Shown here piece after piece: positions 1,800 to 63,711 of a stretch of DNA of 64,000 bases; positions within the stretch are counted from its first letter, which is position 1; the number at the start of each line of letters is the position of its first letter. The notes beneath the pieces are model-generated. The model worked only from the letters and a program-made list of their open reading frames with translations. It had not been told where the DNA came from and searched no databases. A program made the position numbers and the translations under genes. Source of the stretch: Clostridia bacterium (GTDB lineage Bacteria; Bacillota; Clostridia; Christensenellales; UBA1242); contig CAAGAD010000005.1 of NCBI GenBank assembly GCA_900767715.1, positions 793,673 through 857,672 on the forward strand. The letters are read 5' to 3'.

Positions 1800-3347
1800 A
1801 TGGCAGTTTCAAAGGAAAAGTTGAGAATACTAAATCAAGTCAAACAGAACGAAGCCGAGTTTGAACAGTTTGTGCAAGACTGTTTGAATAGTGGTGAGTG
1901 TAGTTATGGCGATGTGGTTACTAACAACGCTCACGCTACGGGTTCGGTCGATTTGGATAGACTTATGCAACTGGTGTCGCACGTGACGCAGAGCCAAAAC
2001 GACAAAGAAGCGGTTTGGGTACAGTTGTCGGGCAATCAACCTTATTTCTATCATTTCAACGGCACAAATACTGCCAAGACCAAAGCAGGCGAGATTGAGT
2101 GCCGACTCTATCTCAATTTGAAAGCCAAAAACATTGTTCCGTTCGCCAGCGCGTTCGTTGATAAATGTGAAAAACATCGTTTGCCTTACCGATTCAAAAT
2201 CGCGGTCGATGACGTGCGTAATGACAATATTCCAATTTATACAAGTTATGCCAATGCCCAAAAGTTCTTGGACGTTATAGCCGAGATTGAAAAGGAAAGC
2301 CACGCGCTATTCGACGGCGCAGAGAATATGGGTGTGATGACGGGCAAGATTGGCAAGTTCGTCGGGTTTGGTGAAGAGTGCGTGCCAACTGATGACAAGA
2401 AAAAGATGTCGTTCAACAGCGCTCGAGCCAAGGTTTTGGGCGAGTATGTGGATAAAATTAATGACATCGCATTGAAAGAACTTTTCGCACCAAAGGTCAG
2501 CCTAAGAACTTCAAAAGGCGACAAAATGTCGGTTGACGATTATGTGATGAACAAGATTCAAGCGTGTCTGTCGCGTTCTGCCAGCAGAAGTGGGATTGAC
2601 GTGACGAGCGCGGAAAACGAGAAGCGTATCAAGGCACAACTCGGCAAGGTTTATGAGAGCATTATCGAGTTAGAAAGTAAGAACATAGATTTTGCCTTGA
2701 AAGACGGCAACGGCAATGAGCAAATTGAACGCCTTGACACAGCGCCTATCGTGGAAAAGATGATGTCGGTGTTTAGAGTGAACAAAAACGCGGACAAAAA
2801 TGTGCAAAAACTCGCCGTGGCACAAAAGATTATTGAGAGCCGTCTGCCAGATAGATTGGTGGTGAGCGAGAGCGCGAACGCACTTACGTATTTGGAAAAG
2901 ATTTTCGGGCAGAAGATTGAAATTATGCTTCAAGACAAAAAAGACTATCTAACTGCCAGTCGCACGCCGACTTTCGACTATGACATCGCACTGAGCAGAA
3001 TCAAGAGCAAGAGTAATTACGGCAAACTTGCGATTCGCAAGGCGATTGTGCAATATCTTATGCAACTCGACAATCCGCAAAGCACACACACTCCGCTTGA
3101 TGTAGATTTGAGCGCGTCGGGTGTCCAAATCGTGCTGGGCGGATTGGAAAAGACGGAAATCGAACGCGAGATATTGCAAGGGTACAATTCGAGCGTGCTT
3201 GAAATACACGATAGAGAGAAATCTCGTTTGCTCCCAGCCGTGTTTAAAGAGGAAAATGTCAGCGTTACCTTCCCATTCCTAAATCTTACGACTGAAATAG
3301 AACTAAAACAACTCTTCGCGCGTAAACCCAATTTGAAGATAAAATAA
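1800..3347 (+). CDS. hypothetical 515-aa cytoplasmic protein; N-terminal third faintly resembles the HopA1 / class III lanthipeptide-synthetase lyase-like fold family
   Basis: GAGGAG RBS 5 nt before the ATG. No signal peptide or TM. The segment RLYLNLKAKN..PYRFKIAVDDVRNDNIPIYTSY recalls a K...R-x-D...Y pattern, but this is from memory only. Confidence 0.7.
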   Translation: MAVSKEKLRILNQVKQNEAEFEQFVQDCLNSGECSYGDVVTNNAHATGSVDLDRLMQLVSHVTQSQNDKEAVWVQLSGNQPYFYHFNGTNTAKTKAGEIECRLYLNLKAKNIVPFASAFVDKCEKHRLPYRFKIAVDDVRNDNIPIYTSYANAQKFLDVIAEIEKESHALFDGAENMGVMTGKIGKFVGFGEECVPTDDKKKMSFNSARAKVLGEYVDKINDIALKELFAPKVSLRTSKGDKMSVDDYVMNKIQACLSRSASRSGIDVTSAENEKRIKAQLGKVYESIIELESKNIDFALKDGNGNEQIERLDTAPIVEKMMSVFRVNKNADKNVQKLAVAQKIIESRLPDRLVVSESANALTYLEKIFGQKIEIMLQDKKDYLTASRTPTFDYDIALSRIKSKSNYGKLAIRKAIVQYLMQLDNPQSTHTPLDVDLSASGVQIVLGGLEKTEIEREILQGYNSSVLEIHDREKSRLLPAVFKEENVSVTFPFLNLTTEIELKQLFARKPNLKIK

Positions 3348-14700: not shown

Positions 14701-15000
14701 AAAAATATAAAACATTTAAAAATAACTGCAAAAATATAAAAAAATAATAAAAAATGCAGTTATTTTTTCATTTTTTATAAAAAATTAATTAATCGGCGCC
14801 TAATATTGCATTAAATAATTATTTAAATTAATATTTTATTTTTTTTAATTTAATTCATTATTTATTTTATTTTAATTATTTTCACCTAATTAATTTTTTT
14901 GCGGAATAACGGAGTAAATTAAAATTTAGTTTAAACCACAAAATCGCGGGCAAATATATTTATATATATTTTTCAAAAATTTGCGAATAATTATTTGATA
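14701..15000. other. ultra-AT-rich island I (about 15% G+C by hand count)
   Basis: I counted 45 G/C in 300 nt. Contains the long-loop hairpin ATAACTGCA-N24-TGCAGTTAT plus a T-run (14722-14768), a likely terminator of the peptidase gene. Confidence 0.8.
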
Positions 15001-15031
15001 ATTATTTTTCTAGGTGGTACACTAAAAGTGT

Positions 15032-18000
15032 ATGAAATCCCTAATGAAAAAAATAAGAATTTGCATTTTGGCAGTTATCTGTATGATACCGGCATTTATG
15101 TTGGCGGGCTGTACAGATGACGTGCCAGTAACGGCGATAAATTTTAGAGAAGAACGCATTGAGATGTTGGTGGGCGATAGTTACGAACCACAAGTTTTTT
15201 GCAGTCCAAATTCTGCTAGCAACAAACGCTATGGCTTGAAGTCTAACGACACAACAATTGTTACCGCTTCCGGCACGAGATTGACGGCGCGCTCAAAGGG
15301 TACAGCAATCGTAACCGCGGTGTCGAGTAGCGAGAGCAAAACCGCCAGCATTGTTGTCATTGTGTATGACAAGAGTGTGCAACTGGGCGTGCCTAGTGAC
15401 ATTAAATATGACGGCGAAGCCTTGACTTTTTCTGCCAGCGAGAACGCGTACAACTTTGATATGCGTTTGAACGGGCAAATTATTCATTTGGGCAACACAA
15501 ACACCTACCGCAATTTTGATGCGGGCAGAGTGAACACGGTTGAGATTATGGCGGTCGGCAATGGTCGAGCCACCATTAGTAGCGCATTTAGTGAAGAATA
15601 CAAATTTTTCCAAATTGCACAACCAACCAACTTGAGAGTAGAAAACGGAGTACTAACTTTTGACGCTGTGGAAAATGTGTCGAAATACAAAATCACTCTC
15701 AAAACTGATAATAACGAAGACGCTGAACAAATTGTTGACACAAATAGTCTAAATTTGAGCAATCTAATTGAAAGCGGAAAAGAATACAATATCAGCGTGA
15801 AAGCGCTAAAAGACGGCTATACAAACGAAAATTTGGACAAAAATGTTGAGATTTTCGCCAGCCGTGAGTCAGCCAGCATCGTGGTGAGCAAGTCTAACGC
15901 TCCAACGAACTTACGTATTGACAAGAATAAGTTGATATTTGACAATGCGGTAAGGCAATCGACCTTTGAGTTGGAAATCTATTCGGGCTCAAACCAAGTG
16001 CTAACTACACAATTTAATGAGGATTTTTATGACTTGTCGGCTCTTGACGCGGGCGAGTACAGCATTAAGGTTAGACAAAAGACAACTGGCACGAATGCAT
16101 TGTTCAGCGACTGGTCAATCCCACTTGTTGCGACCAAACTTGTTAGTCCAACCGTGACGATTGCGGACGGTGTAGTGAAGATTTCGGCGGTTACAGACGC
16201 TGTTGGCTACAATGTGGTAGTCAATGGCGCTGTAATCGACATTCGTGACGCCAGTGAATTTGTTTTGGGTTCATCTTTCGGCGTTGGCGCATACACAATC
16301 GGCGCGCAAGCCTATGGTGACGCGCAAACCATTATCTCAAATGTTTCGACCACAATTAGTGCGACCAAACTTGCCACACCAAGAAATCTCGCACTCAACA
16401 ATTACGTACTCTCGTTCGACGATGTGAACGACTCTGCTAGTTTCAAACTTACTGTTTCAGCCGATTTGGCTAGCGAAGTTAAGGTCAACGATATTATAGA
16501 TGTTGAAGGCAATAGTTACACATTCGCGCCTTCATACTTCGCCGAAACAACCAAGACGGACACATACAGATTGCAGTTGCAAGCATACAAGACGGGCAAT
16601 TACCTTTTGAGCGAGAAAACCGAGATATATTTGGTATATAAACTCGCCACACCACAAAATGTCAACCTAACCGACGAAAAGATTACTATTGAAAACGAGA
16701 AAATCAATATCGTGGCGGTAGAATCAACAATCGGTTACAAGATTGAATTCTACCTTGCAGACACGAATGTTTTGGTGGACGAAAAGGCCTTTACCCCACC
16801 ACAAACATACTCCGACCTACCAGCACTTGACGCGGGCAAATATTCGGTCAAGATTATGGCAACGGGCAATAACGCCAACGTGCTTGACTCGGGCATTGTT
16901 CAGTTGGACGATATCGACGTCTTGGCAATCCCAACCACTAGAGCGGAAAGTAATGCAATCATTTGGAATGCGGTGGAGAAAGCAACGGGCTATTTTATCA
17001 CTCGCGACGAAGTATTAGATGACAAACTTATTACCGACCTATCTTACAATATAGATTTGTTGGAAGCGGGCGTGTATAATTTCAAAATTCGTGCTTACGG
17101 CGATGGACAGAAAATCATCTCTTCAAAATATAGCGAAAGTCCACTAGTTATCACCAAACTCAGCCAGCCAACCGACCTTGACTACCAAAACGGCAAACTC
17201 ACGTGGAGCGCGGTTGAGGGCGCAACTGCTTACGATGTGTGCTACAAGAATGAAGAAACAGACAACATCGACTCATTCCGCGTTGGCACCAATTCGTACG
17301 ACATAGATTTCGCGAGCAAACTTGCGGGCAGTTACAACTATTATGTCATTGCGCTCGGCAACTCAAACACAGTGTTTGACAGCAAACCAAGCCAGGACAT
17401 CACCATTGTTAAACAAGCCAAGGCGACTGATTTGCGCCTTGAAGGCAATACGGTCAAATGGAATTATGACATTGACTCAACCTATGAACTGGTTGTGAAC
17501 GGCATTGTCATAGATGACCTAACAAACGGCGCGTTCGACCTAATCAAAGACTATTTGCCAATCGCAAACTTTGAAACTGCGCAAGAATACACAATCACAC
17601 TCATCACCAAGGGTGAAAGTCGCAAACTAGTGGCGGACGGCTTAGTTGTCAAGGTTGATAGTGACCCAACCGACAGCCTAGTCATCACCAAATTGGCACA
17701 AACCACTGACGTCAGCCTGTCAAGTGGTGTGCTGAAATGGAAGATTAACACATCGGCAGTGTCATATTCACTAGTGGTGGACGGCAACGTCCTGATTGAG
17801 AATGTTGCTACCAACGAAAACAATGACGCGGGTTACCAAACGTATGATTTGAATGCAAGTTTGACGGCGGGTGAGCATACTGTGGCAATCATTGCGAACG
17901 GCAATGGCGTAAACAGTTTCGATTCTAACGCGTCCAACTATTTGGCTAGCGAGATAAGACTCACAAAATTGCCAGCAGTGGAACTCAAATTCAACCCAAG

Positions 18001-21000
18001 TGTATATAACGCGAGCGATAATACCTACACAATGCCATTCATCAGTTGGAACGCCATAACCGGCGCTGACCATTACGCATTGTACATAAGGTTTGCGGAC
18101 GGCAACGACGAATTGACCGACAGTCTTGGCTCAATCACGGGCACAAGTTACAGCCTTGAAAACATCGACAAGGCGGGCGATGTGACCTTTATGGTTAGGG
18201 CTTATGGTAATAGCAACGACATTTTGTACAGCGATTTCGCCGAAATGAATATCGAACGCCTAAATGCACCAAAACTGGTTGTCGCAAATGGCAAACTCAG
18301 TTGGGAAGGAGTTTTGAATGCCAATAGTTATCTGTTGTTCGTTCAAAACCCAGCCACCAGCGTTTACGAACTCGTTGACGAATACGCCGGCATTGCAAGT
18401 TACGACTTTGCAGACCGCACGGCAGGCGCGTATGACGTGCGCTTGATTGCGCGCAATAGCCTATCGCAAGCCGAAATCAAATACGCGGACAGTGTAATGG
18501 CAGAGATGACTGTCACAAAACTTAACACTCCAATCAACTTCACCGTTTATGACGGCAAGTTCAAGTTTGATATGGTGACGGGCGCAGAAGGCTACGAAAT
18601 TACAATCGGCAAATACAAGCACAAAATCGGCGCCGACCAAACCAGCGATTTGGAATTACATTCAATGCTAGCCGAGCGCGTTGAGGACGCCAAACTTGTG
18701 GCGACCGCCGACGGCAAAATAACCAGTTCACCAACCACGATCAAGGTGAGAATGCTCAGCAGTCCACTTGGTGTGAAGATGGTGGGCGGAAACATTGTTT
18801 GGGACAAAATCCAGTTGCCAGAAGGCAGTAGCGACGCAGAATACGTGGTTACCATACAAAAGGGCACTGATGTAGAAAAGTTTGACGCGGGTGTAAACAC
18901 TTCACTTGCCTTCCCAGACTTAAATTGGGGCACGGGCGAATATTACATCTACATTCAAGCCAAATCGGGCGTCTATCTGGATAACGGCGAATTGGTTTAC
19001 CAGACCATAAGCCCATACTCCACAACCTACACAGTTATCATTCAAGACTCGGTGTCCATCATTCAATCGGTTGACGGACTTCTCAGTTGGGGAAGCATTT
19101 CCACAGCGGTTGGCTACAATGTGAAAATCGTTGACGCCAGCGGTCACGAAAACGTGGTTTATGTGACAGACGCAAGTTTCGATATGAGCGATTATGTCGG
19201 GTTTAGAACGGTCAGCGTTATGACCAAAGGCAATGGCGAAAACATTCTAGACAGCGATTATTCTATGCCAGTGCACGTCATCACAATGCCAAAAGTCGAA
19301 ACAATCGGCTTGGTTGACGGCAAGGTAACTTTCGATGCAGTCAGCATATTTAACCGCGCTAAACTCACATTCACTAGTGTGGACAATAGCCTATTATTCT
19401 ACGAATTTGATTGCTCACCAAGTTTGTTCGACGGCGCAAATAACGCTAAGACGTGGGCAAATATCGTAGAAACATTCGGTACAGATTACACCAACTGGAA
19501 TTACACTAATGTATTTAACACTATTAACAATAGTTACATTCTAAATAAACAAATCAACATTCCTAAGGGCTCATATAAGTTGACTATCAAGTTGATAGGC
19601 AACACCCACGCGGGCAGTGTTGACTTGGCAAAGGGCAATATCATTGTTGCTTCCAGCCAGACCAGTGTCGCCGTAGAAATGGAAAAACTCGGCACACCAA
19701 TCGTCAATGTCGATGACGGCATTATCTCTTGGGCGTCGAGTGCAAGTTATGCCGAATTGAAAACATTCAATGTTTACGTTCAACGTGTTTACAAAGAAAA
19801 TAACGAAAGTAAGACAGAAATCCACACCTTCCAAACAAATGTGGATTGGTCATACAACAACATTAGTTCAATCGACTTCAAACAAAATAGTTTCGCTTAC
19901 ACCGACCTAAACGGTCAGTCAAGGACAATTACTTTTGGCGAGGCGGGCGAATATAAGGTTTATGTAAGTTTGCAAGGCGACAGCACGAAATATTTGACAA
20001 GTAATGATTCAAATATTGAGAGCGTACGCATTCTTGAAGACCCAGAAATCAAACAGATTGCGGGCGAAATGACTTGGGAAACAATTCCTTATGCCACCGA
20101 GTATAGAATCGACTACACAATCAATGAATCGTCAAAATCATTGTATGTAATGGGCGACAGAATCAACTTTGTCACAGACTTCACTGACACCAAGGGCATT
20201 ACTCACACCTTCCCAGCGGGCGAGTACGATTTGAGAATCTTCGCTGTCGGCAATGGCAAAGACATTCTCAACTCAAAATCGGGTAAGCGTTACACCAAGC
20301 GTAAACTCGACATCGCCGACGCGCAATTTACACTCACAGAAGGTTTACTTGAATGGAACATAGTAAGTAATATGGCTTACTACTATGTAGATATTGACAA
20401 CGCATACACCAGCCAATACGGCGGAATCATTGTCAACGCGAACGAACCAAACGAAAGTTTGAAGTTCGACAATGTAAACAACGTGCTGACCTATGAAATC
20501 CCTACCAACCGTGTGGTCGGCATTCACAGTGTTCGCATTTACGCAATCGGCGACAACGAAAGTCTGTTGAGTTCAAGTTTCTCGAAAGTTATAACAGCCG
20601 AAAAACTTGTGGCACTTTCTACTCCGTCACTCAATGGTGGCAGATTGGAATGGCTTCCTAACGGCAACAATAGGTCGGGCTTCGATATCAAAGTGTCATT
20701 CATTGACGACGAAGGCTACACAATCAGTTTCATCAAGAACATCAACGAATCAACATTTATCTTGCCAGACAGCGTCACACTTTCAAATGGTATCGTTTAC
20801 CAGTTGAACGGACGCGACTATACGGTTTGGGTCAAGGTTCGTGGCACGAGTTATCGTGAGACGGGTGGAAACTATTTCAATAGTGACTACTCGAACGAAC
20901 TAGGCTTCGCAAGATATGACGACATAACCAATGTTCACACCACCAAGGGCGAATTGACTTGGACGGAAGTAAACAACGCCGACAACTATTACATCACAAT

Positions 21001-23002
21001 CGGTGGACTCGAAGTTTATACTGACAACACTTTGCTTGCACAAGACAATTTGTCATCACTTGCGGGCGGTCAATATTTGGCGACTATTTGTGCAATGGGC
21101 AATCGTCAATATATGACTTCACGCATAACGACAACAAGTTATTTGACCAAGTTTGACAGTCCAACAGGGCTCAAAACAGACGGAACAAAGATTGTCTGGG
21201 ACGCAGTGGAGAACGCAACCGGTTATAGAGTGGAACTCGGCAAATTGAACGACGCTGGCGAGTATGAAATTCAGCCTATTGAAACCACAACTGACAACAA
21301 CTTCACCTTGCCTAGCAGTTATGACGGACTTACTTTCAAGGTTCGTGTAATGGCGATTTCGCTTGAAGATAATGACAATTATCTCAACAGCGAATGGTGC
21401 GAAGAATGCATTGTGAATAAGGCAGAGCCAATCAGCAATTTGCGATTTGACGATGTCAACAAGCAATGGGTATGGACAGCGCCAGAGAGCGTGGATAAAT
21501 ACGTCATCAGTTATCGTCTAAACGGCAACAATACGGAAACCGAAACAATCAGCGGAGCGTACGCATACTTCAAGCCACAAAAACTCGGTGTTTACAGTGA
21601 GTTCGGCGTGCAAGTAGCACCTCCAACCACTCAGACGACAATGCTCCTATCCGACATTGTTTACTGGGAAAGCACGGACGACCAGGGCGTCGTGTATAAA
21701 CCAACCTACAATTTCAATATGTTCAATGCGGGCTACGGCACAGCAGAAAGTCCATACGAAATTGTGAGCGTGGAACAATTCATCAACATCAACTATTACA
21801 GCGACAAACATTTCATCTTGAAACGTAATATCGAATCAAGCAAAACTTATTTGAGCGCACTTGTTGGCGAGTTTACAGGCGTATTCAATGGAGATGGTAA
21901 GACTATCTCCAAGATAACCATTTCGACCGACAAATCGAACGCAGGTTTGTTCGGCATACTAACGGACGCAACGATTAAGAATTTGACTTTGGCGAACATT
22001 AGCGTAACCAACACATCATCTAGTGCGAACTATGTCGGCGTGTTGGCGGGCAGAATCGAGAAATCAAACATCGACGCGGTGACAATCAACGCGGGAGTTG
22101 TGGCTAGCGAAATCAAGGTTCAAAGATACGCTTATGTAGGCGGTTTGGCAGGTATGATTAGTGATAGCGTAATCAACAATATTGGTGTGAATATCACCGT
22201 CAACAATAACGTCAACAATGAAATCGCACTTGCTATTTACTCAGCAGGTTTGACCGCGATGTCAACCAACAGCACACTCACAAGCATTAGAGTGGGCTTG
22301 ATAGACCGTTCACAAGTCAACTCAACCTATCGTCTTGCAGGAATTGTCACAATGCTTGACGGCGGAACGTTGACCGATTCTTATGCAACTCTCGATAACG
22401 CGTCATCTAACTATGCAGACCATATCGGTGGTGTAGTTGAAACCAACAAGGGCACAATAGATAGTTGTTTCGCAACTGGCAAAGTGACCGTTCGCGGTAT
22501 TGCAAATGCTAACTATCAGCGTAATGGCTATGCAGGCGGTTTGGTCGGCACAAACGACTCTAACGGCACAATCAAGAACTGCTATGCTCAACTCAGCATT
22601 GTGGTAACGACCAACATTTCCGCAACATCTGGTGATTATCGAGTGGTAGTTGGCGGTCTGGTTGCAGTCAACGCGGGCTTAATCGATAACTCTTGGGTTG
22701 TCATCGCCAACGGCTATGCAACACTCACCAAGAGCGCAGAAAACACAGAATGCGTAATCAATGCTTTCGTTGGCAAAAACACTACAACCTATTCACAAGA
22801 AGGTTACACTTATGGCATCAAAAACTGCTATCAATATATTGACGGTGGCGCAAATTCGGGTGGCATCAGTCAAATGGATAGCGTGGCAAGTATGATGACA
22901 GAAGCGTTCAAGAAAACACTCAACACAAACGCTGGCAAAGACATCTACAATACAACAAACTCAGGTTTGCCAGAGTTCTTGTGGCAAAGCAAATTAATCT
23001 AA
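15032..23002 (+). CDS. giant surface lipoprotein/adhesin: lipobox, Big_2 domain, about 23 Fn3-like modules, C-terminal GLUG-type repeat region
   Basis: 2656-aa uninterrupted ORF. Lipobox MLAGC. Big_2-like VTAINF...GTAIVTAVS. Modules recur with P-x-N-L...G-x-L-x-W..V..A..Y; the Y-x-V-x-A-x-G part of the pattern is not met exactly in every module. C-terminus has SPYEI..EQF...FTGVFNGDGKTI..AGLFG...IKNLTL..VGGLAG (GLUG-motif pattern). Confidence 0.9.
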   Translation: MKSLMKKIRICILAVICMIPAFMLAGCTDDVPVTAINFREERIEMLVGDSYEPQVFCSPNSASNKRYGLKSNDTTIVTASGTRLTARSKGTAIVTAVSSSESKTASIVVIVYDKSVQLGVPSDIKYDGEALTFSASENAYNFDMRLNGQIIHLGNTNTYRNFDAGRVNTVEIMAVGNGRATISSAFSEEYKFFQIAQPTNLRVENGVLTFDAVENVSKYKITLKTDNNEDAEQIVDTNSLNLSNLIESGKEYNISVKALKDGYTNENLDKNVEIFASRESASIVVSKSNAPTNLRIDKNKLIFDNAVRQSTFELEIYSGSNQVLTTQFNEDFYDLSALDAGEYSIKVRQKTTGTNALFSDWSIPLVATKLVSPTVTIADGVVKISAVTDAVGYNVVVNGAVIDIRDASEFVLGSSFGVGAYTIGAQAYGDAQTIISNVSTTISATKLATPRNLALNNYVLSFDDVNDSASFKLTVSADLASEVKVNDIIDVEGNSYTFAPSYFAETTKTDTYRLQLQAYKTGNYLLSEKTEIYLVYKLATPQNVNLTDEKITIENEKINIVAVESTIGYKIEFYLADTNVLVDEKAFTPPQTYSDLPALDAGKYSVKIMATGNNANVLDSGIVQLDDIDVLAIPTTRAESNAIIWNAVEKATGYFITRDEVLDDKLITDLSYNIDLLEAGVYNFKIRAYGDGQKIISSKYSESPLVITKLSQPTDLDYQNGKLTWSAVEGATAYDVCYKNEETDNIDSFRVGTNSYDIDFASKLAGSYNYYVIALGNSNTVFDSKPSQDITIVKQAKATDLRLEGNTVKWNYDIDSTYELVVNGIVIDDLTNGAFDLIKDYLPIANFETAQEYTITLITKGESRKLVADGLVVKVDSDPTDSLVITKLAQTTDVSLSSGVLKWKINTSAVSYSLVVDGNVLIENVATNENNDAGYQTYDLNASLTAGEHTVAIIANGNGVNSFDSNASNYLASEIRLTKLPAVELKFNPSVYNASDNTYTMPFISWNAITGADHYALYIRFADGNDELTDSLGSITGTSYSLENIDKAGDVTFMVRAYGNSNDILYSDFAEMNIERLNAPKLVVANGKLSWEGVLNANSYLLFVQNPATSVYELVDEYAGIASYDFADRTAGAYDVRLIARNSLSQAEIKYADSVMAEMTVTKLNTPINFTVYDGKFKFDMVTGAEGYEITIGKYKHKIGADQTSDLELHSMLAERVEDAKLVATADGKITSSPTTIKVRMLSSPLGVKMVGGNIVWDKIQLPEGSSDAEYVVTIQKGTDVEKFDAGVNTSLAFPDLNWGTGEYYIYIQAKSGVYLDNGELVYQTISPYSTTYTVIIQDSVSIIQSVDGLLSWGSISTAVGYNVKIVDASGHENVVYVTDASFDMSDYVGFRTVSVMTKGNGENILDSDYSMPVHVITMPKVETIGLVDGKVTFDAVSIFNRAKLTFTSVDNSLLFYEFDCSPSLFDGANNAKTWANIVETFGTDYTNWNYTNVFNTINNSYILNKQINIPKGSYKLTIKLIGNTHAGSVDLAKGNIIVASSQTSVAVEMEKLGTPIVNVDDGIISWASSASYAELKTFNVYVQRVYKENNESKTEIHTFQTNVDWSYNNISSIDFKQNSFAYTDLNGQSRTITFGEAGEYKVYVSLQGDSTKYLTSNDSNIESVRILEDPEIKQIAGEMTWETIPYATEYRIDYTINESSKSLYVMGDRINFVTDFTDTKGITHTFPAGEYDLRIFAVGNGKDILNSKSGKRYTKRKLDIADAQFTLTEGLLEWNIVSNMAYYYVDIDNAYTSQYGGIIVNANEPNESLKFDNVNNVLTYEIPTNRVVGIHSVRIYAIGDNESLLSSSFSKVITAEKLVALSTPSLNGGRLEWLPNGNNRSGFDIKVSFIDDEGYTISFIKNINESTFILPDSVTLSNGIVYQLNGRDYTVWVKVRGTSYRETGGNYFNSDYSNELGFARYDDITNVHTTKGELTWTEVNNADNYYITIGGLEVYTDNTLLAQDNLSSLAGGQYLATICAMGNRQYMTSRITTTSYLTKFDSPTGLKTDGTKIVWDAVENATGYRVELGKLNDAGEYEIQPIETTTDNNFTLPSSYDGLTFKVRVMAISLEDNDNYLNSEWCEECIVNKAEPISNLRFDDVNKQWVWTAPESVDKYVISYRLNGNNTETETISGAYAYFKPQKLGVYSEFGVQVAPPTTQTTMLLSDIVYWESTDDQGVVYKPTYNFNMFNAGYGTAESPYEIVSVEQFININYYSDKHFILKRNIESSKTYLSALVGEFTGVFNGDGKTISKITISTDKSNAGLFGILTDATIKNLTLANISVTNTSSSANYVGVLAGRIEKSNIDAVTINAGVVASEIKVQRYAYVGGLAGMISDSVINNIGVNITVNNNVNNEIALAIYSAGLTAMSTNSTLTSIRVGLIDRSQVNSTYRLAGIVTMLDGGTLTDSYATLDNASSNYADHIGGVVETNKGTIDSCFATGKVTVRGIANANYQRNGYAGGLVGTNDSNGTIKNCYAQLSIVVTTNISATSGDYRVVVGGLVAVNAGLIDNSWVVIANGYATLTKSAENTECVINAFVGKNTTTYSQEGYTYGIKNCYQYIDGGANSGGISQMDSVASMMTEAFKKTLNTNAGKDIYNTTNSGLPEFLWQSKLI
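15368..21700 (+). repeat. array of about 23 diverged tandem 80-130-aa Fn3-like coding modules
   Basis: Module boundaries read from the protein (K-L-x-x-P-x-N-L junctions). The repeats are diverged at the DNA level, so no long identical nucleotide repeats were seen. Confidence 0.7.
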
Positions 23003-23040
23003 AACCAAACCAACCCGTAAACTCGGGTTGGTGGTTTTGG
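23003..23040 (+). terminator. probable leaky terminator after the giant adhesin gene
   Basis: Imperfect hairpin AAAACCAAACCAACCCG-TAAACT-CGGGTTGGTGGTTTT with only a short T-run. Confidence 0.5.
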
Positions 23041-23094
23041 GCTTTATACATATAAAATAAAAAGTTGAAAATACTAAATTAAAAGCGAGCAAAT

Positions 23095-23655
23095 ATGGAT
23101 TATAGTTATCAAAACTATCGCGACAACGAAATCAATCTACCTAAAATGTTGAGCGACTGCTTATGGATTATTGTCAAAGCCGTGGTATTCACCTTGGCTT
23201 TGCTAGTGCTTTTTGGCTTAGTTTTTGGCTATAAGCCATATCTGGTCATTAGCGGAAGTATGACACCTACGCTTATCGAGAACCGCGACATCGTAATCGT
23301 GAAGAAGATTGATTACGACAAATACCAAATTGGCGACATCATCACCTTTACCAAAGACGACGGCAAAACAATGTGCACGCACCGCATTGTCACAATCGAC
23401 TTTGACGAAGACGGCCATCGCACAGGCATCAACACGCAAGGCGACTGGAAAGACAATTCGCCTGACAACAATCATCTCACCGACGACCAAATCGTAGGCA
23501 AAGTGGTGGCAATCTATCGTGAATGGGGCGCGGTATATTTCTTTATTCGCAACAATTTATATCTCTGCATAGCACTCGTGCTTACCATATATATGGGGGT
23601 TACCTTGCTGGAAGCCAATTACGAATATTTGAAAAAACCGGTCAAATTTGAATAA
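23095..23655 (+). CDS. sipW: signal peptidase I, SipW / ER-archaeal type (S26B)
   Basis: SGSMTPTL serine box, CTHRIV histidine box, N-terminal and C-terminal TM segments. 186 aa, close to my recollection of B. subtilis SipW at about 190 aa. Confidence 0.85.
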   Translation: MDYSYQNYRDNEINLPKMLSDCLWIIVKAVVFTLALLVLFGLVFGYKPYLVISGSMTPTLIENRDIVIVKKIDYDKYQIGDIITFTKDDGKTMCTHRIVTIDFDEDGHRTGINTQGDWKDNSPDNNHLTDDQIVGKVVAIYREWGAVYFFIRNNLYLCIALVLTIYMGVTLLEANYEYLKKPVKFE

Positions 23656-23708
23656 TATCGCTTTACAATTTTATGTCTTATTTTGTAGAATAGATATAAG
23701 GAAGGACT

Positions 23709-26129
23709 ATGCACACATCAAGCAAAAGGAACAATAGGCTATTATCAATACTATTGATGGTTATGGCAATAGTGCTTCTTTTGGGTGGACTAGGCTTCAC
23801 TTTGGCGGGCAAACGCACAAGTTTTGTGACGAAAAAGGCCTCCAATACGACCTACACCAATGCAAGCACCAAGACATTTTTGGATAACTCTACACTTGAA
23901 TATCCTATCGATTACAAAATCGGTTCGGTAGCAAGACAGATTTCGGCTTATACCTACTCAACCACTGCGCAATATTTGGCGTATAGCGTAAGTTTTAGAT
24001 ATGTCACGGTAACCGCCAGCACGGGCGCTGCGACCAATGCGAACAAGGCGGTCAACAATATCAATATCATTCCATTCATTGACAGAGATTGGTATTTTGA
24101 CCAGAATCATTCCATTCTGTATAGACGTTCGGCATTGCAAGCCACCAGTTCGACTAAAAAAGCAATGACTACAATCTTAACCGGTGTTGAATTCTTCGAC
24201 AACACCAACGGCGTATATTATTCGGGTTGCAAATTGCAAATCATTCTCACGCCAACCACATATAGTTCATCGGCAATTCCAACAAACGGGGTTACGGTTT
24301 ATAATGTTTCAACCAATGTAAACTATGCAATCGGCTCATTCCGCACACCAATCTATGTGCGCAACAATAGTTCGTCTGCACAAGGATTGACATTCACGGT
24401 TGACGCCGGTTGGTACAATTCTTCTGACACAGCAGTTTCTGGCTTGCCAAGGAACAAAATTAAACTAAATTTGAGCAACAACTATTTCACAGGCTACAAT
24501 GGTGGGAATAATACTGAATCAAACAGCAGTCTTTACACTTCGTCTTACGCTCCATCTGGCAATGCAAATGCAAATGAAATCACCGATTCGGACGCATTGC
24601 AATATGGCGGTAGTTACACATACAGATGTAATGTTCTGGCTGGCGAAATTGTTCCAATCATTGATAGCATTGAAATCATCAATGTCAACTGGACGGGTAA
24701 TGGCGAATCAGATTACGCTGGTACTCACGTGAAGATTTCACTCGGCAGTTGTTCACTAACCACTTTGTCTAGCCCAAAAACAAGTTTGACAGGTGGCACG
24801 ACTTATAATGTCACTAACGGCGCTACCGTTCTGCCAATTGATTTGACAGGTGTGACAAGTGGTTGCACTCTCGAAAGAAGCGCCGTATATTCTACTTTGG
24901 CAGATACGACATTATCAGTTAGTTACAATTACTATATCGCTTATTGGGTGCAATACATCAGTGGTAATAGCAGCGATAGTACTAATACTTATGATATCGT
25001 TGCGGGTGAATATGCAGTCTTGCCAGTGACAAAGGGCGTGTCAGTTGCCAAACGTCAAGGGCAGGCTTGGAGTGATAACAATTACAAACAAAGTCTTACA
25101 AAGGGCAGAACAGTATCGCTCTTTGATACAGTGACCATTGCTTCAACGATGACTGTGAACGGCACCAGCGTAACAGTCAATTCCAGTCTTGCTACTGCAC
25201 TCAAAAATATCAAAGTAAGCAGTAGTACAAACACTTACACAGATTCATTCGGCATTTCGGGACGTATCGTTCCTAGCAGTTATACTCCACGTTGTTATTT
25301 GATAATAAAACCTACTATCACAACCAATTCCAGTGCGTCAACAGCCACTGACTTTGCAAGTGAAGTTTTGATTTCACAATCAGCAATGAGTATTAGTACA
25401 TCTGCCGTGCCATACACTGTGGCAATCAAAAATACTTCAACACTAGTTTATTCATCGGCAATAATCACTCTTACAGGTATAAATATAAATTCATTCACAT
25501 TAGGGCTCAATACTGGTTGGAGTTGGAATGGAAACCAAGGACAACTTACCTATTCTGGCGCGATTAAACCAGGACAGACAGTGGTAGCAGTCGGCAGTGC
25601 GACTGGCTCATCAAGTGCGATTAACTATGGTACTGCAAGTATGACAACCAGTTCAAGCGAAACGATTGACAACGTCGTAGTCATTGACGAAACTCAAACC
25701 AAGGGCGTTTATATGCAAAACGCCACTACTGGCATCAACTACACGGGCGATGCAAATAGTTCGACCAAGAAAATTCACATTATCAACACATCATCGAACA
25801 TGTATTATATTCGTGTGATGATTGCACCAAAATATATGAAAGCGGGCGCAACTGGAACGGGAACACTTACATTCACAGCCACCGACTACACCAAGTTGTC
25901 GGGCGCACACACCTATTACTACAACAAAATACTTCTTCCGGGTCAAGAAATTGAACTTGGCGGAGTGACAATCACTGCCAACTCTAGCAACACGGGCACA
26001 AGCGTGATTTACAACCCAACCGTTGCTTCATCAGTGGTAAGCACGACGTCGTTTGCTGTGCCATCTGGCTGGGACGCATCTTCGATGTCCAAGGTTCAAA
26101 GTTTCTACAGAATCGTATTCCAAAAATAA
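23709..26129 (+). CDS. 806-aa S/T/N-rich secreted protein with a SipW-cognate-like signal peptide
   Basis: AAGGAAGGA RBS. N-terminus KRNNRLLSILLMVMAIVLLLGGLGFTLA|GKRT. No LPXTG or C-terminal TM, and no enzymatic motif seen. Confidence 0.8.
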   Translation: MHTSSKRNNRLLSILLMVMAIVLLLGGLGFTLAGKRTSFVTKKASNTTYTNASTKTFLDNSTLEYPIDYKIGSVARQISAYTYSTTAQYLAYSVSFRYVTVTASTGAATNANKAVNNINIIPFIDRDWYFDQNHSILYRRSALQATSSTKKAMTTILTGVEFFDNTNGVYYSGCKLQIILTPTTYSSSAIPTNGVTVYNVSTNVNYAIGSFRTPIYVRNNSSSAQGLTFTVDAGWYNSSDTAVSGLPRNKIKLNLSNNYFTGYNGGNNTESNSSLYTSSYAPSGNANANEITDSDALQYGGSYTYRCNVLAGEIVPIIDSIEIINVNWTGNGESDYAGTHVKISLGSCSLTTLSSPKTSLTGGTTYNVTNGATVLPIDLTGVTSGCTLERSAVYSTLADTTLSVSYNYYIAYWVQYISGNSSDSTNTYDIVAGEYAVLPVTKGVSVAKRQGQAWSDNNYKQSLTKGRTVSLFDTVTIASTMTVNGTSVTVNSSLATALKNIKVSSSTNTYTDSFGISGRIVPSSYTPRCYLIIKPTITTNSSASTATDFASEVLISQSAMSISTSAVPYTVAIKNTSTLVYSSAIITLTGININSFTLGLNTGWSWNGNQGQLTYSGAIKPGQTVVAVGSATGSSSAINYGTASMTTSSSETIDNVVVIDETQTKGVYMQNATTGINYTGDANSSTKKIHIINTSSNMYYIRVMIAPKYMKAGATGTGTLTFTATDYTKLSGAHTYYYNKILLPGQEIELGGVTITANSSNTGTSVIYNPTVASSVVSTTSFAVPSGWDASSMSKVQSFYRIVFQK

Positions 26130-26139
26130 AGGGTAAAAG

Positions 26140-26751
26140 ATGAGAGATAGTAAAAACAAAGCAAGGTTTGTTAGCGTATTCACATTGACAATGTGCTTTG
26201 TTTTGGCACTCATAATTTTACCTGTGACATACGCATATTTGACTAAGCACAAATATGTCGGCGGAGCAATTACGGTTGCCACAATTAGCCTAGACGCGCA
26301 GAACTCGTCTAGCACAACGATTGTTGGCAAAACTGTTACACTAGGCGAGGCTGATTCCAGCGATATCTACAATTATACTGCCAAGGTAAAAAACACCGGT
26401 AGTGCAAGCGTAATTATTAGATTTTATGTTGGACTCATCAATAGTTCGGGCGCTGTGGTAAAGACCACCGCAATCGAACCAGTGCTTGCAGATAGTTCAA
26501 ATTACACTTGGGTTGGTGATGGAAGCGGTTACTACTATTTATCAACAACGGCGGGCAAAAGATTGACCGTTGCGCATAACGGCACGTACAATATGCTCAC
26601 AGGCTTCCAAATCAACGATCCATCGGGCACATTAGATAGCAGTATCGATAGTGACGGCAATGTTACATTCGGCTTGCAAATACAAGCCGTGCAATACAAT
26701 ATCGGTTCTAGCCTTTCTAGCGTTTGGACGAACATTCCATCGAACTGGTAA
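26140..26751 (+). CDS. TasA/camelysin-like small secreted protein (putative fibre subunit) with SipW-cognate signal peptide
   Basis: 10-nt gap after the upstream gene, with RBS. Signal ...LALIILPVTYA|YLTKHKYVGGAITVATISLDAQN resembles the TasA junction GGGTWA|AFND...ATFASGTLDLSA as I recall it. Confidence 0.7.
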   Translation: MRDSKNKARFVSVFTLTMCFVLALIILPVTYAYLTKHKYVGGAITVATISLDAQNSSSTTIVGKTVTLGEADSSDIYNYTAKVKNTGSASVIIRFYVGLINSSGAVVKTTAIEPVLADSSNYTWVGDGSGYYYLSTTAGKRLTVAHNGTYNMLTGFQINDPSGTLDSSIDSDGNVTFGLQIQAVQYNIGSSLSSVWTNIPSNW

Positions 26752-26767
26752 TTAAAAGGAGTAGCAG

Positions 26768-27340
26768 ATGAAAACAAAGAATATTCTTGGCAAAGTGTTC
26801 ACATTAGTTGCTTTTGTTTTCGTGTGCATAATTGCTATTAGTTCGACGAGTGCCTGGCTAACAACCAATCCAAACAAAACCACATTTGTCATCACTTATG
26901 GTGAAGTAAACTTCCAGTTGGTAGGTAATAGCACGGTGGCGGGTTATTCCACCTCCGCGAGCGACATTATCGCTGACTCAAAGACGCCTAGCAATGACAA
27001 AGGCTTTATGTTGCCAACTAGCATTAACAGGAATGGTACATACAATCAAAGATTCGCAATCAAAAATGTGGAAAGTTCAACAATCTACGTTCGCGTAAGA
27101 TTTACCACATATTTGAACGACTCAACGACGGCAGCCGTTTTCGCTCAGTCGTTGACTCCAAATACAAGTTGGACATACAATTCATCTAGCAACTATTATT
27201 CAGCAACAATCTCAGCAAGTACGACCACCAACATTTGTACTCAAATGAAAGTTGGCTCGATTGCAAATAGCACTTTTGTAAGACTGAAAATCGAGATAGA
27301 AGCAGCCTCTGCAGCCAATAAGTTTACTAGTTTAGTTTAA
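26768..27340 (+). CDS. TasA/camelysin-like small secreted protein (second putative fibre subunit)
   Basis: AAGGAG RBS, 16-nt gap. Signal ...CIIAISSTSA|WLTTNPNKTTFVITYGEVNFQL. 190 aa. Confidence 0.65.
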   Translation: MKTKNILGKVFTLVAFVFVCIIAISSTSAWLTTNPNKTTFVITYGEVNFQLVGNSTVAGYSTSASDIIADSKTPSNDKGFMLPTSINRNGTYNQRFAIKNVESSTIYVRVRFTTYLNDSTTAAVFAQSLTPNTSWTYNSSSNYYSATISASTTTNICTQMKVGSIANSTFVRLKIEIEAASAANKFTSLV

Positions 27341-30832: not shown

Positions 30833-30851
30833 TTTCTTAAATTAAAATAAA

Positions 30852-30880
30852 AATACGGAGAAGTGTTTTCCGTATTTTTT
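30852..30880 (+). terminator. rho-independent terminator
   Basis: AATACGGA-N9-TCCGTATT followed by TTTT. A second palindrome at 30884-30916 (GACCTTGTAAA/TTTACAAAGTC) is flanked by A- and T-runs. Confidence 0.7.
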
Positions 30881-30884
30881 AATA

Positions 30885-31066
30885 AAAAAGACCTTGTAAA
30901 TTTACAAAGTCTTTTTATATTAATTTATTTATTATTAAATAATTAAATATTTAATGTTTTTTAATAAATTTATTTAAATAAAATATATTTTTTAATTAAT
31001 TATAATTTTTCGTCATTTATTTAATTATTTAATTTTTAATAATTGCAGATAATTAAAATTAATTAA
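30885..31066. other. ultra-AT-rich island II (about 6% G+C over 30901-31080 by hand count)
   Basis: I counted 11 G/C in 180 nt. Lies between the convergent 28013 gene and hisS. Confidence 0.8.
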
Positions 31067-32314
31067 TTATTTTTCAAAAATTACGATTTCTTTTTTGTTA
31101 ATGTCAACGAAACCAACATAACCATTTTGCATCAGTCTATCAAGTTGAGCGCGGACATTTTTTTGCTTTAAGAATATTGCAACGTCATACTCTTTTTGCA
31201 ATTCAGTCTTGTATTCGAAAACGTCCTTGCTGGTATTGTCAAGTGAGTACAACAGAGCCAATTTCTTTTCAGCAGAGACAAGCAGATTGTGTTCAGTCAC
31301 GAGCATAATTGTTGGTTCGAGCCCGAGTCCAAAGCCAACCATTGGCACAGGTTCGCCGATGAATTTTTGGCTCATATTATCATATCTGCCACCGCCACCG
31401 ATTGCACTGTTAAAGCCATACGCTGTGGCGTAGAACTCAAACACTGTGCCGGTGTAATAGCCTTGTCCGCGTACGATTGTGATATCGAAACGTGCGGTCA
31501 TTGTGTCGGGGGCAATTTGATTGATTGTATCCACAATTAATTGTGTGTTGTGGATTAGTTCAGCGTCGATTTTGCCATTCAATGCAATAACGCCGTCAGT
31601 TTTTGTGGCAATGATTATGTCGAGCAGTTTTTCCACTTTTGTGATGTTATAACCTTTTTCAATTAGTTCGTTTGTGACGCCCTCGCGTGCAATTTTATCA
31701 AACTTGTCAAGGCTGATTGCGATATCTACTTGGTCACTTTTTTCAAAACCAACATAGTCGATAATTGCGTTCAAGATTCTGCGGTCACTGATACGCGCTT
31801 CCACATTTCTTAGACCTACATTGTAATAGGCTTGCAAAGCGGTCGAAATGATGTCGATGTCAGCATTGACACTGCCGTCGCCGATGATGTCCGCGTCGCA
31901 TTGTGTGAATTGACGCAAGCGACCTTTTTGTGGACGTTCAGCACGGAATGATTCGTCGATTTGAATTGATTTAAAAGGGAAAGTTAATTTCTCGCGGTTG
32001 TTGCACCAAAAGCGCACGAGTGGAACGGTTTGGTCGTATTTCAAGCCTTCCGCTGTGATGTCTTTTTCGGTGAGATTCGTGCGAGTTAGGTCAAGTTCAG
32101 CACCACGCTTGATTGTCTTGAACATTAGTTTGGTGTTTTCCCCCTCATCGCCGTTGGTAAGCCATTCAAGGCTTTCCAAAATTGGCGTTTTGATAAGGTT
32201 GAAGCCGCTGTTCGCATATGTGCGTTTGATGATGGAAATCACTTTATCGCGCACACACATTTCGTTAGGCAAGTATTCTTTGCAACCCCTAACTGGATTT
32301 GTGCTGATTTTCAT
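31067..32314 (-). CDS. hisS: histidine--tRNA ligase
   Basis: Class-II motifs: N-terminal RG.KEYLP pattern, FRAERPQKGRLRQFTQCD, GGGGRYDNM. C-terminal anticodon-binding-like domain. 415 aa. GGAGGA RBS lies in the 8-nt gap after glyQS. Confidence 0.85.
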   Translation of the reverse strand: MKISTNPVRGCKEYLPNEMCVRDKVISIIKRTYANSGFNLIKTPILESLEWLTNGDEGENTKLMFKTIKRGAELDLTRTNLTEKDITAEGLKYDQTVPLVRFWCNNREKLTFPFKSIQIDESFRAERPQKGRLRQFTQCDADIIGDGSVNADIDIISTALQAYYNVGLRNVEARISDRRILNAIIDYVGFEKSDQVDIAISLDKFDKIAREGVTNELIEKGYNITKVEKLLDIIIATKTDGVIALNGKIDAELIHNTQLIVDTINQIAPDTMTARFDITIVRGQGYYTGTVFEFYATAYGFNSAIGGGGRYDNMSQKFIGEPVPMVGFGLGLEPTIMLVTEHNLLVSAEKKLALLYSLDNTSKDVFEYKTELQKEYDVAIFLKQKNVRAQLDRLMQNGYVGFVDINKKEIVIFEK

Positions 32315-33754: not shown

Positions 33755-33915
33755 GGAAATAAAAAATCCCCACGCAAACTTATTGCATAGGGACGATAAA
33801 TACTTACCGCGGTTCCACCCTAATTGGTATAAACCCTCTTTTTTCTTCGTATCGTCAAGAGAAACGAGTGCCATTTTCGCACTTCCAAGCAAATCGCCAC
33901 TTTGCTTATTGGATT
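33755..33915 (-). promoter_or_regulatory. T-box riboswitch leader (glycine specifier GGC) with intrinsic terminator
   Basis: The minus strand contains AATTAGGGTGGAACCGCGG (RC of 33807-33825), matching the T-box consensus. It is followed by CCCTATGC-N9-GCGTGGGG plus a U-run. GGC codons occur at two candidate specifier positions. Confidence 0.8.
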
Positions 33916-33921
33916 ACATTA

Positions 33922-35792: not shown

Positions 35793-36040
35793 AATTAAAT
35801 TATATCATAAAATAAATATTTGTAAAATTAAAAATAAAATATTAAAAAAATAATTAATATTTAAAATGTACTAAAATAATTAATAGATTAATAAAATATT
35901 GTATGAAAATATTAAAAATTATTAAAAAATCGTTATTTTCTGCAATTTTACTAATTTTTTTGCTAATTTCTCCATTTTTTATTTTTAAAAATTTAAATTA
36001 TTATCTTGATGTAAAAGCGGAAAATAAAAAGATAAATATG
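35793..36040. other. ultra-AT-rich island III (5-13% G+C per 60-nt block by hand count), includes the first ~46 codons of ORF 35903
   Basis: Hand counts of 3, 6 and 8 G/C in three successive 60-nt blocks. Composition returns to normal near 36040. Confidence 0.8.
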
Positions 36041-46927: not shown

Positions 46928-47212
46928 GTTGCTTCTCCCAAAATTTCGTTTTGCTAGTTTGATTAGATGTGTTTTGAATAATTATTGCCAAAAGCGTATT
47001 CGCTAACAATAATTTTTGCCAAAAACTAGCAATTACATTTAGTCAACAAAAATATTACCAAACTAAAGCAAATTTGTCAATTAAATATAAATATCTGCAT
47101 ATAAATAAAAGTACAGGTTTAGCAATATTGCTTCAAAATAAGACAAAATTTGACTGCTTTGTTTATGCTAAAATGTTTGTAGAACAAAACGAAAGTGAAT
47201 TTAGGAGAAATT

Positions 47213-49406: not shown

Positions 49407-49487
49407 AGGTACTCCTTCATTTTCGAGTACATTATATTTTTTTTGAATGTATTTGTCTAGCATTTATATTATCTTTTTTAGATAAAT

Positions 49488-55260: not shown

Positions 55261-55321
55261 TATATTTAATAAATATTTGAGCGAAAACGAGAGAAAATAT
55301 TTTTGTAGATGAAAGGTTAAT

Positions 55322-63702: not shown

Positions 63703-63711
63703 GGAGAAATT

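Follow-up and report, generated by a model that had tools for sequence, protein, structure and literature searches.

Ultra-AT-rich islands in a Clostridia genome may be functional sites padded with A/T simple-sequence DNA

Introduction

Why would a genome with 50% G+C at its third codon positions carry blocks of almost pure A/T, one of them inside an essential gene? The question is raised by a stretch of contig CAAGAD010000005.1 from a Clostridia bacterium. The window, by which we mean the whole stretch of 64,000 nucleotides that was analysed, holds five such blocks, called islands I to V here. Two precede giant genes for putative surface proteins, one lies between convergent genes, and two enter coding sequence, as a preliminary description of this DNA had reported. 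That description offered several meanings for them: they might serve as platforms for a nucleoid-associated silencer or for curved DNA, be what is left of an AT-rich insertion element, or have entered by recombination from a low-GC donor.

We put the probability at about 0.5 that the islands are ordinary functional sites with a padding of A/T simple-sequence DNA, which expands by itself under AT-biased mutation. Each island is a block of about 250-500 bp in which a functional site is joined to nearly pure A/T, cryptically simple DNA of 4-6% G+C. The host belongs to the spore-forming Clostridia: spoIIR, sleB, ypeB, sipL and whiA are in the window, and spo0A is at the orthologous position in relatives. 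It was compared with related loci, numbered L047-L059, which come from uncultured metagenome bacteria, presumably of animal-gut origin.

Composition of the islands

The window is 42.4% G+C overall and 50% at third codon positions and 4-fold degenerate sites. Among 100-nt segments the mean G+C is 0.424 with a standard deviation of 0.078; the islands lie 3.5-4.7 standard deviations lower and form a minor detached bump at 10-15% G+C in the histogram. All five hand counts of the preliminary description were reproduced exactly: 45/300 (14701-15000), 11/180 (30901-31080), 17/180 (35821-36000), 41/300 (37261-37560) and 42/360 (54901-55260), a range of 6-16% G+C. The three spacers it had chosen for comparison are at 28.7% (826-1083), 34.0% (1426-1799) and 26.7% (46928-47212). 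With a simple gene model, four spacers of the window fall at 5.5-16.3% G+C and the remaining ones mostly at 19-35%.

The islands are a genuine DNA-level feature that differs from the usual spacers of the window. The claim that they form a distinct class holds only in part: the four spacers are outliers just below the others in the window, but across 84 spacers from the window and nine related loci G+C has a single peak at 24-28% and a low tail without a break. Structured RNAs occupy the long spacers of moderate G+C, namely a tRNA (1545-1618) and a T-box leader (33786-33918).

Anatomy of the islands in spacers

Islands I and V have a common three-part layout: a terminator hairpin, then filler of 4-6% G+C, then a promoter-proximal stretch of 20-25% G+C. 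The four islands that occupy spacers are made up as follows, with the strand in brackets where one applies.

14701-15031: island I, the spacer between a peptidase M1 gene and giant gene 1, 16.3% G+C
14718-14773 (+): terminator-like hairpin and U run, 13-bp stem and 24-nt loop, 17 nt past the peptidase M1 stop; the 3' arm holds AAAAATGC
14804-14900: A/T-only filler of island I, 6.2% G+C, degenerate tandem repeats of period 22-27
14995-15023 (+): candidate promoter TTGATA-17-TGgTACACT, ending 8 nt upstream of the ATG at 15032
15032-23002 (+): giant gene 1, 2656 aa, N-terminus ending LAGC, weak Big_2 match
30833-31066: island II, the spacer between two convergent genes, 10.3% G+C
30849-30916: two terminator-like hairpins, 30849-30880 and 30884-30916, the second folding on both strands
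30917-31066: A/T-only filler of island II, 150 nt, 4.7% G+C, degenerate 45-nt tandem duplication
35793-35902: island III, the divergent spacer between uvrC (-) and a 309-aa gene (+), 110 nt, 5.5% G+C
35903-36037 (+): first 45 codons of the 309-aa gene, hydrophobic N-terminus, almost all codons A/T-ending
54909-55321: island V, the spacer between ypeB and giant gene 2, 13.3% G+C
54959-54995 (+): terminator-like hairpin and U run past ypeB, 14-bp stem and 6-nt loop; the 3' arm holds AAAAATGC
55001-55120: A/T-only filler of island V, 4.2% G+C, degenerate repeats of period 14-36
55121-55321 (+): promoter-proximal part and 5' leader of island V, 19.9% G+C (the level of ordinary spacers), GAAAGG 5 nt ahead of the ATG
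55322-63358 (+): giant gene 2, 2678 aa, hydrophobic N-terminus, weak Ig-like match, not paralogous to giant gene 1

A scan with the rule for G+C-rich terminators gave zero matches in the islands because the stems are A/U-rich, and the hairpins were therefore tested by folding. A stable hairpin with a U run past a stop codon, as expected of an intrinsic terminator, is present in island I, in island V and as the second hairpin of island II, with z scores of -4.3 to -5.8. The hairpins of island I (-11.7 kcal/mol, z = -4.3) and island V (-13.9 kcal/mol, z = -5.65) were each equalled by 0/200 shuffles, and the second hairpin of island II folds at -11.0 kcal/mol on the plus strand (z = -4.4) and -14.4 on the minus strand (z = -5.8). 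For the first hairpin of island II the fold window clipped the hairpin; this one is kept in L047. The hairpin of island I is also kept in L054 and L053.

The fillers were searched with Tandem Repeats Finder (TRF). Although the islands cover about 2% of the window, they hold 46 of its 72 TRF rows. The top score is 77 in the filler of island I, matched by 3.3% of shuffles, 106 in that of island II (0.7%) and 90 in that of island V (2.7%). The best score in island III is not above the shuffles, 44% of which reach it.

The promoter-proximal parts are better conserved. In island I the filler shows many indels and weak conservation in L053 and L055, and alignability in the middle of the island is soon lost, whereas the final ~100 nt are almost unchanged in the 85% relative. 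All four genomes keep TTGATA-17-TGgTACACT, even the 63% relative with its GTG start 6 nt on, and the motif is a candidate promoter. In island V, 55121-55321 has conserved blocks in common with the 62% relative; a scan of this part gave no single assignable promoter. The orthologues of island I are 331, 297 and 340 nt long in relatives with 98%, 85% and 63% protein identity. For island V the 99% relative has 413 nt, and the 62% relative 344 nt at 20% G+C.

With 4/28 spacers ultra-AT, the chance of an island ahead of both giant genes is about 0.016, which bears out the preliminary remark on their placement. The two giant genes were considered as paralogues, which would have made islands I and V duplicates. 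The giant proteins are unrelated on comparison, so the two islands are not duplicates. We read the LAGC N-terminus of giant gene 1 as a putative lipoprotein signal. This gene is clade-specific, and in the 51% relative there is none behind the peptidase M1 gene.

The start of giant gene 1 has no Shine-Dalgarno sequence at normal spacing; a GGTGG is present at an unusual spacing of 14 nt. The mRNA may be leaderless or nearly so, or else GGTGG may be a Shine-Dalgarno sequence at 14 nt. In L055 (7578-7615) the motif TTGATA-17-TG-n-TA(C/A)ACT likewise ends 6-8 nt ahead of the start of giant gene 1, as it does at 14995-15034 of the window. Upstream of island V, ypeB was listed from a TTG at 53412, which overlaps sleB (open reading frame to 54908), while its 457-aa homologues point to an ATG at 53535.

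Island II varies most in length. In the 95% relative (L050) it is 283 nt long, with a 43-nt indel and a 51-nt unit in 2.5 copies, and in the 83% relative (L047) it is missing, with about 61 nt separating the two genes. One of these genes encodes a 415-aa HisRS-like protein (31067-32314, minus strand) in which the anticodon-binding domain was not detected, and which may be HisZ-like. The gene may be a pseudogene in L047 (4214-5474), or its sequence there may contain an error, since it is broken into open reading frames of 79 and 336 aa.

Island III is 110 nt long in L050. In L047, where it shows indels, 127 nt lie between the called genes (97 nt by the open reading frame model), and in L052 63 nt (45 nt). 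The first 45 codons of the adjoining 309-aa gene have 4 G/C-ending codons against 21.9 expected, and the same is seen in L047; the L052 orthologue, beside a short island III, has normal codon usage at its start. We read the N-terminus of the 309-aa protein as a likely signal peptide or membrane segment. An obvious Shine-Dalgarno sequence was not seen at 35903 either. Nearby, the T-box leader (33786-33918, minus strand) before the glycyl-tRNA synthetase gene scores 42.9 bits (E = 2e-8 locally), below the Rfam gathering score of 93. In L052 the T-box spacer between glyQS and uvrC is enlarged to 370 nt at 17.6% G+C, which makes it an additional AT island.

The island inside murB

Island IV lies entirely within a coding sequence.

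36823-37809 (+): murB, UDP-N-acetylenolpyruvoylglucosamine reductase, host of island IV
37261-37560 (+): island IV, an N/K/I-rich insertion (about residues 145-193) and native MurB codons 198-243, third-position G+C 12%
37330-37418 (+): tandem duplication in murB, a 43-nt unit (37330-37372) and a 46-nt copy (37373-37418), starting in frames 0 and +1

The duplication has a TRF score of 125 with 85% matches, and 0/300 shuffles reach it. Its copies are read in two frames, so the duplication arose at the DNA level and the protein tolerated the copy. Against Listeria MurB (3TX1), 53 query residues stand against 14 between two well-aligned blocks. The insertion of about 39 N/K/I-rich residues is clade-specific and, from the alignment, would sit in a tolerated surface loop. 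MurB varies from 321 to 353 aa within the clade.

The third-codon-position G+C (GC3) of murB is 0.12 in island IV and 0.44-0.48 in its flanks, and the 45 native codons after the insertion are AT-rich too. Compared with the genome's usage for each amino acid, 13/100 codons end in G or C where 45.9 are expected; AAC serves 2 of the 21 Asn residues, ATC 0 of the 18 Ile and AAG 0 of the 19 Lys. AT-rich protein contexts elsewhere in the window have a GC3 of 0.39. The island stays in frame, its flanks encode a normal MurB, and it is present in all five clade members, with MurB homologues at 96, 89, 73, 61 and 45% identity. The GC3 trough (0-25%) spans the same ~100 murB codons in five out of five. 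In the conserved AT part of murB the silent divergence is 0.16, against 0.39-0.47 in the flanks.

Silent sites beside the islands and along the lineage

The AT bias also reaches into the ends of genes beside islands. Observed over expected G/C-ending codons at gene 3' ends are as follows.

0-15 codons in: 0.46 beside islands, 0.93 in controls
15-30 codons in: 0.61 beside islands, 0.89 in controls
30-45 codons in: 0.80 beside islands, 0.97 in controls
More than 45 codons in: 1.0 beside islands, about 1.0 in controls

This spread over about 45 codons recurs in L053, L047 and L055, and not in L052 with its short island III.

In the window as a whole, NNY codons favour C (Asn 56%, Asp 69%, His 66%) and NNR codons favour A, with G in only 26% for Glu, 36% for Lys and 21% for Gln. 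This pattern resembles selection on codon usage more than simple mutation pressure toward GC. GC3 is 10-13% in rabbit-gut outgroups (MurB only; metagenome-assembled genomes of 26-30% G+C), 28% in the 51% relative L059, 33% in the 62-63% relatives L055 and L057, 43% in L047 and L052, and 50% in the window, where the first and second positions are at low-GC values (46% and 35%). The coding composition of the clade appears to be shifting rapidly. The outgroup L030, at 26% G+C, has a block of 5.7% G+C adjoining murB, so the ultra-AT filler predates the rise in coding G+C.

Conservation and turnover in relatives

Contigs with MurB homologues come from independent ENA, Logan and NCBI assemblies; they share synteny with the window at DNA identities of about 95%, 83%, 77% and 70-75%. 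Orthologous AT blocks of islands III and IV are present in every contig that covers them, those of island I in three relatives and those of island V in two. Islands I and III show indels between relatives, and the composition of the relatives' islands is conserved without conservation of their sequence.

Divergence was compared between the window and L047, L053, L050, L054 and L056.

4-fold sites: 0.55 against the 83-85% relatives, 0.044-0.144 against close relatives
Ordinary spacers: 0.11-0.13 against the 83-85% relatives, 0.016-0.025 against close relatives
Alignable island positions: 0.17-0.21 against the 83-85% relatives, 0.018-0.064 against close relatives

Island divergence from close relatives is about half of the 4-fold rate. 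We considered this low divergence as proof of purifying selection and rejected it: a two-state site at 10% G+C saturates at 2 x 0.9 x 0.1 = 0.18, so a low value is no proof of constraint; the conserved AT part of murB, at 0.16, meets this ceiling too. Ordinary spacers diverge 2-7 times slower than 4-fold sites, and noncoding DNA is thus seemingly unusually conserved relative to silent sites.

When changes were polarised, the islands gave 13 from AT to GC and 2 from GC to AT, and 4-fold sites gave an equilibrium of 50% G+C. With so few island changes, and with AT-to-GC changes inflated where parsimony goes wrong in skewed sequence, the counts cannot decide between an equilibrium and a relic. 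By our own calculation from these small counts, an A/T site in an island changes to G/C about 2.7 times less often than an A/T site at a 4-fold position. A gap of about 2.5-fold would be expected if 4-fold sites had been pushed to 50% G+C from an equilibrium of about 10%, which is close to the value observed.

Tests for a common element or a known class

Local alignments between islands were judged against dinucleotide shuffles. Of the 20 strand-specific island pairs, 18 are within the shuffled scores, and the exceptions, II with the minus strand of V and III with V, are A/T low-complexity matches of about 70% identity. The idea that the islands are one family or repeat was dropped: the pair alignments are at shuffle level, and blastn E-values between islands are inflated by composition. 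The five islands are independent blocks and are not copies of a single element. The 8-mer AAAAATGC was correctly placed by the preliminary description (14750, 37363, 54979 and 55000, with AAAATGC at 55120), but as a shared motif it is at chance level, with 9 copies found in the window and 10.4 expected. Two of them, at 14750 and 54979, form 3' arms of the terminator hairpins.

An origin as remnants of an insertion element finds no footing here, as the islands are no more alike than shuffles apart from the low-complexity matches, and inverted repeats and repeated copies were not found. No terminal inverted repeats or target-site duplications were seen on reading the island sequences. No transposase or integrase genes were found among the window proteins; the sole IstB_IS21 match is a DnaI-like helicase-loader gene beside a DnaB_2-domain gene. 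Intrinsic curvature does not hold up either. Islands I, II, III and V have no AA/TT periodicity at 10-11.5 bp (p = 0.35-0.47), and a 10.5-nt signal appears only in the coding island IV; with helical phasing of the A-tracts missing, curvature fails its defining test.

Rfam covariance models gave no match in any island at gathering or E-value thresholds, the only hits being the tRNA and the T-box leader outside the islands. No DnaA boxes lie in or beside any island, unlike a replication origin or unwinding element. A promoter consensus scan found promoter-like matches no commoner than in shuffles. Among the proteins of the 64-kb window no xenogeneic-silencer domain of the H-NS, Rok or Lsr2 type was found. 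The islands resemble silencer targets in being much more AT-rich than the genome, but they do not lie in a horizontally acquired region. They do show two marks of cryptically simple DNA: tandem repeats above the expectation from composition, in all but island III, and length polymorphism between close relatives.

Other features of the window

The gene downstream of giant gene 1 encodes an S26 signal peptidase (23095-23655). Three more, of 806, 203 and 190 aa, lack a Pfam match and have an unusually high second-position G+C of 45-49%. By analogy, 15032-27340 may be a surface-structure operon that recalls tapA-sipW-tasA. Cumulative GC skew climbs through the window and reverses downward at the start of giant gene 2 (about 55300-64000), which is probably gene-specific composition (C > G on the sense strand of giant gene 2) and not a replication terminus. 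A match to the HopA1 effector family at 29.9 bits, above the gathering cut-off of 22.7, is unexpected for a member of the gut Clostridia; it is in the 515-aa protein at 1800-3347 (+). At 48864-48930 (-), within the gene at 48729-49463, a GAT/GAC-type trinucleotide array of about 18 copies encodes an acidic repeat; the protein has a double zinc-ribbon domain.

Discussion

Any explanation of the islands has to account for how they are built, for duplications and turnover by indels, for a deficit of G/C-ending codons that spreads into the flanks, and for a composition that is conserved without sequence. In the explanation we favour, the functional sites would be the terminators past peptidase M1, past ypeB and between the convergent pair, the promoter-proximal DNA of the giant genes and of the uvrC/309-aa pair, and the loop position in MurB. 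Where protein, RNA or protein-binding constraint is lacking, AT-biased mutation would hold the DNA at A/T only. Replication slippage or tandem duplication of 17-51-nt units would make the filler lengthen and shorten, and the same local process would pull the silent positions of the adjacent ~45 codons toward A/T. The noncoding filler would have stayed at the very low G+C typical of low-GC relatives while GC3 climbed, and the contrast is extreme in this lineage because third codon positions rose to 50% G+C. We infer that mutation and slippage, not selection for AT, maintain the blocks. We know of no description in bacteria of A/T simple sequence spreading into coding DNA by invasive mutation. 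An AT bias of mutation is universal (PMC2936535).

Several points weigh against this explanation. For a free-living bacterium, an equilibrium of 4-6% G+C reached by neutral change would be extraordinarily low. The silent positions of murB escape 50% G+C in all five relatives, though silent sites elsewhere are saturated (0.55 at 4-fold sites), which fits selection for AT at least as well, and AT-rich protein contexts elsewhere keep a GC3 of 0.39. The spacers ahead of the giant genes stay at 300-410 nt in relatives where the sequence is no longer alignable, and such retention of length is unexpected for useless DNA because of the usual bacterial deletion bias. Islands stand ahead of both giant genes (p ~0.016). 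GC-to-AT changes in islands are below the neutral prediction (2/90 G/C sites), although the remaining G/C may be constrained positions, which would soften the shortfall.

A possible though doubtful alternative is that the AT blocks are selected as DNA-level platforms that set giant-gene expression and local chromosome structure, with tandem duplications as merely the route by which they are built. Such a platform might be a nucleation site for an AT-binding nucleoid protein like Rok, H-NS or Lsr2, a UP-like upstream region, or an easily melted supercoil sink. The placement before both giant genes (p ~0.016) speaks for platforms, as does the fact that composition and approximate length are kept there and sequence is not. 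So does the AT bias that beats codon preference inside essential murB in five of five relatives and in flanking gene ends. As read from the alignment, ~85-110 nt by the candidate promoter of giant gene 1 are ~95% identical in the 85% relative, where 4-fold sites differ by 55%. AT-rich DNA is also known to draw silencers and RNA polymerase in Escherichia coli and Bacillus subtilis (PMC8894471, PMC3688479). Yet the A-tracts are without helical phasing and no motif is common to the islands; island II is dispensable, being missing in L047; relatives carry islands at other spacers; and the contexts are mixed (convergent, divergent, intragenic and upstream). The giant-gene spacers of the 62-63% relatives, at 19-20% G+C, are inside the ordinary spacer range of those genomes, no candidate binding protein was seen among the window proteins, and low island divergence, with its ceiling of 0.18 at 10% G+C, is uninformative on constraint. 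A bolder pair of ideas is unlikely: that the blocks are selected A/T platforms of ~300-500 bp, duplex-destabilised or protein-nucleating, tied to giant-gene control and kept even inside an essential gene against preferred codons, or that they are self-spreading A/T DNA that converts neighbouring coding DNA.

The lineage could instead have left the islands behind as compositional relics of an ancestor of ~27-32% G+C with free sites at ~10%, lagging while GC3 rose to 50%. The climb of GC3 from ~10% to 50% through the lineage, the match of island G+C with outgroup MurB GC3, and the 13:2 excess of AT-to-GC changes point this way, but that excess rests on small counts and is inflated by parsimony. 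Against the 83-85% relatives silent sites have reached saturation (0.55), yet every member of the clade still has AT-only islands III and IV and AT-only upstream spacers, which calls for a local force that persists. Recent gains of sequence, namely the 43-nt indel and the duplications, also consist of A/T only. We regard relics as quite improbable. Foreign DNA, whether insertion-element remnants or patches from a low-GC donor, is very improbable and largely refuted. The composition is atypical, comparison with L047 makes island II look like an insertion or deletion, and giant gene 1 is clade-specific, but the islands are without common sequence, inverted termini or repeated copies, and synteny is conserved around every one of them. 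Island IV, moreover, occurs clade-wide, holds native codons that align to the MurB of other species and, by a rough count, is not nearer to low-GC MurBs than the remaining protein, while integrase and transposase genes were not found and the sole tRNA (1545-1618) is distant from the islands. That the islands are assembly artefacts or chimeric joins, a case the preliminary description had named as one that would undo it, is hardly credible: orthologous islands recur across independent assemblies, samples and pipelines, and island IV preserves the frame of murB between flanks that encode a normal MurB. Some short-read contigs of relatives do end at an island, as in L058.

Known systems are alike in part. 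At the protein level the closest parallel is the Asn/Lys-rich insertions of Plasmodium falciparum (PMC3749963, PMC5762703, PMC5389722), which are also N/K/I-rich and of low complexity, lie in loops of conserved enzymes, use AAT, AAA and ATT/ATA codons, have degenerate DNA repeats and variable length, and go with noncoding DNA that is nearly pure A/T. The whole Plasmodium genome, however, is ~80% AT, whereas the blocks here are in a genome of 42% G+C with a GC3 of 50%, so the local contrast is far higher and the codon usage of the insertion contradicts the rest of murB. Regions silenced by H-NS, Rok or Lsr2 (PMC8894471, PMC3688479, PMC6584129) resemble the AT-rich blocks ahead of surface-protein genes, giant gene 1 being clade-specific, but the islands here were not horizontally acquired, and one is in a core gene and one between convergent genes. 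Mutation bias at human microsatellites gives their flanks a convergent, repeat-like composition (PMC509290), a precedent for the silent A/T spread over ~45 codons, although that case concerns (AC)n in human noncoding DNA and the mechanism here would be by analogy.

Intrinsic terminators of low-GC Firmicutes share with islands I, II and V the hairpins after stop codons, flanked by A-rich sequence on the 5' side and U-rich sequence on the 3' side, but explain only 35-70 nt per island. To our knowledge no silencer gene or silencer binding has been described for this lineage. The plc promoter of Clostridium perfringens reportedly has curved DNA with phased A-tracts upstream; A-tract-rich DNA ahead of a Clostridia promoter is common to both, but the phasing of 10-11 bp is missing in islands I, II, III and V. 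Three things are unusual enough to stand out: the local contrast of ~5% against 50% G+C, the presence of a block in an essential gene in defiance of codon preference, and the spread into silent sites of the flanks.

AT blocks like these probably break short-read assemblies, and they can mislead gene callers and scans for horizontal transfer; the contig of L058 ends 12 nt beyond the ypeB stop, and that of L057 ends 183 nt inside giant gene 2. If selection for AT maintains the blocks, they would be a new form of AT-platform regulation in a group without a known H-NS-like silencer. If the islands are instead padded sites, as we favour, the blocks would read out the unconstrained DNA of the lineage, at ~5% G+C against 50% at silent codon positions. 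They would then be an example of simple-sequence DNA entering an essential gene, and an unusually clean system in which to part mutation bias from codon-usage selection in uncultured gut Clostridia.

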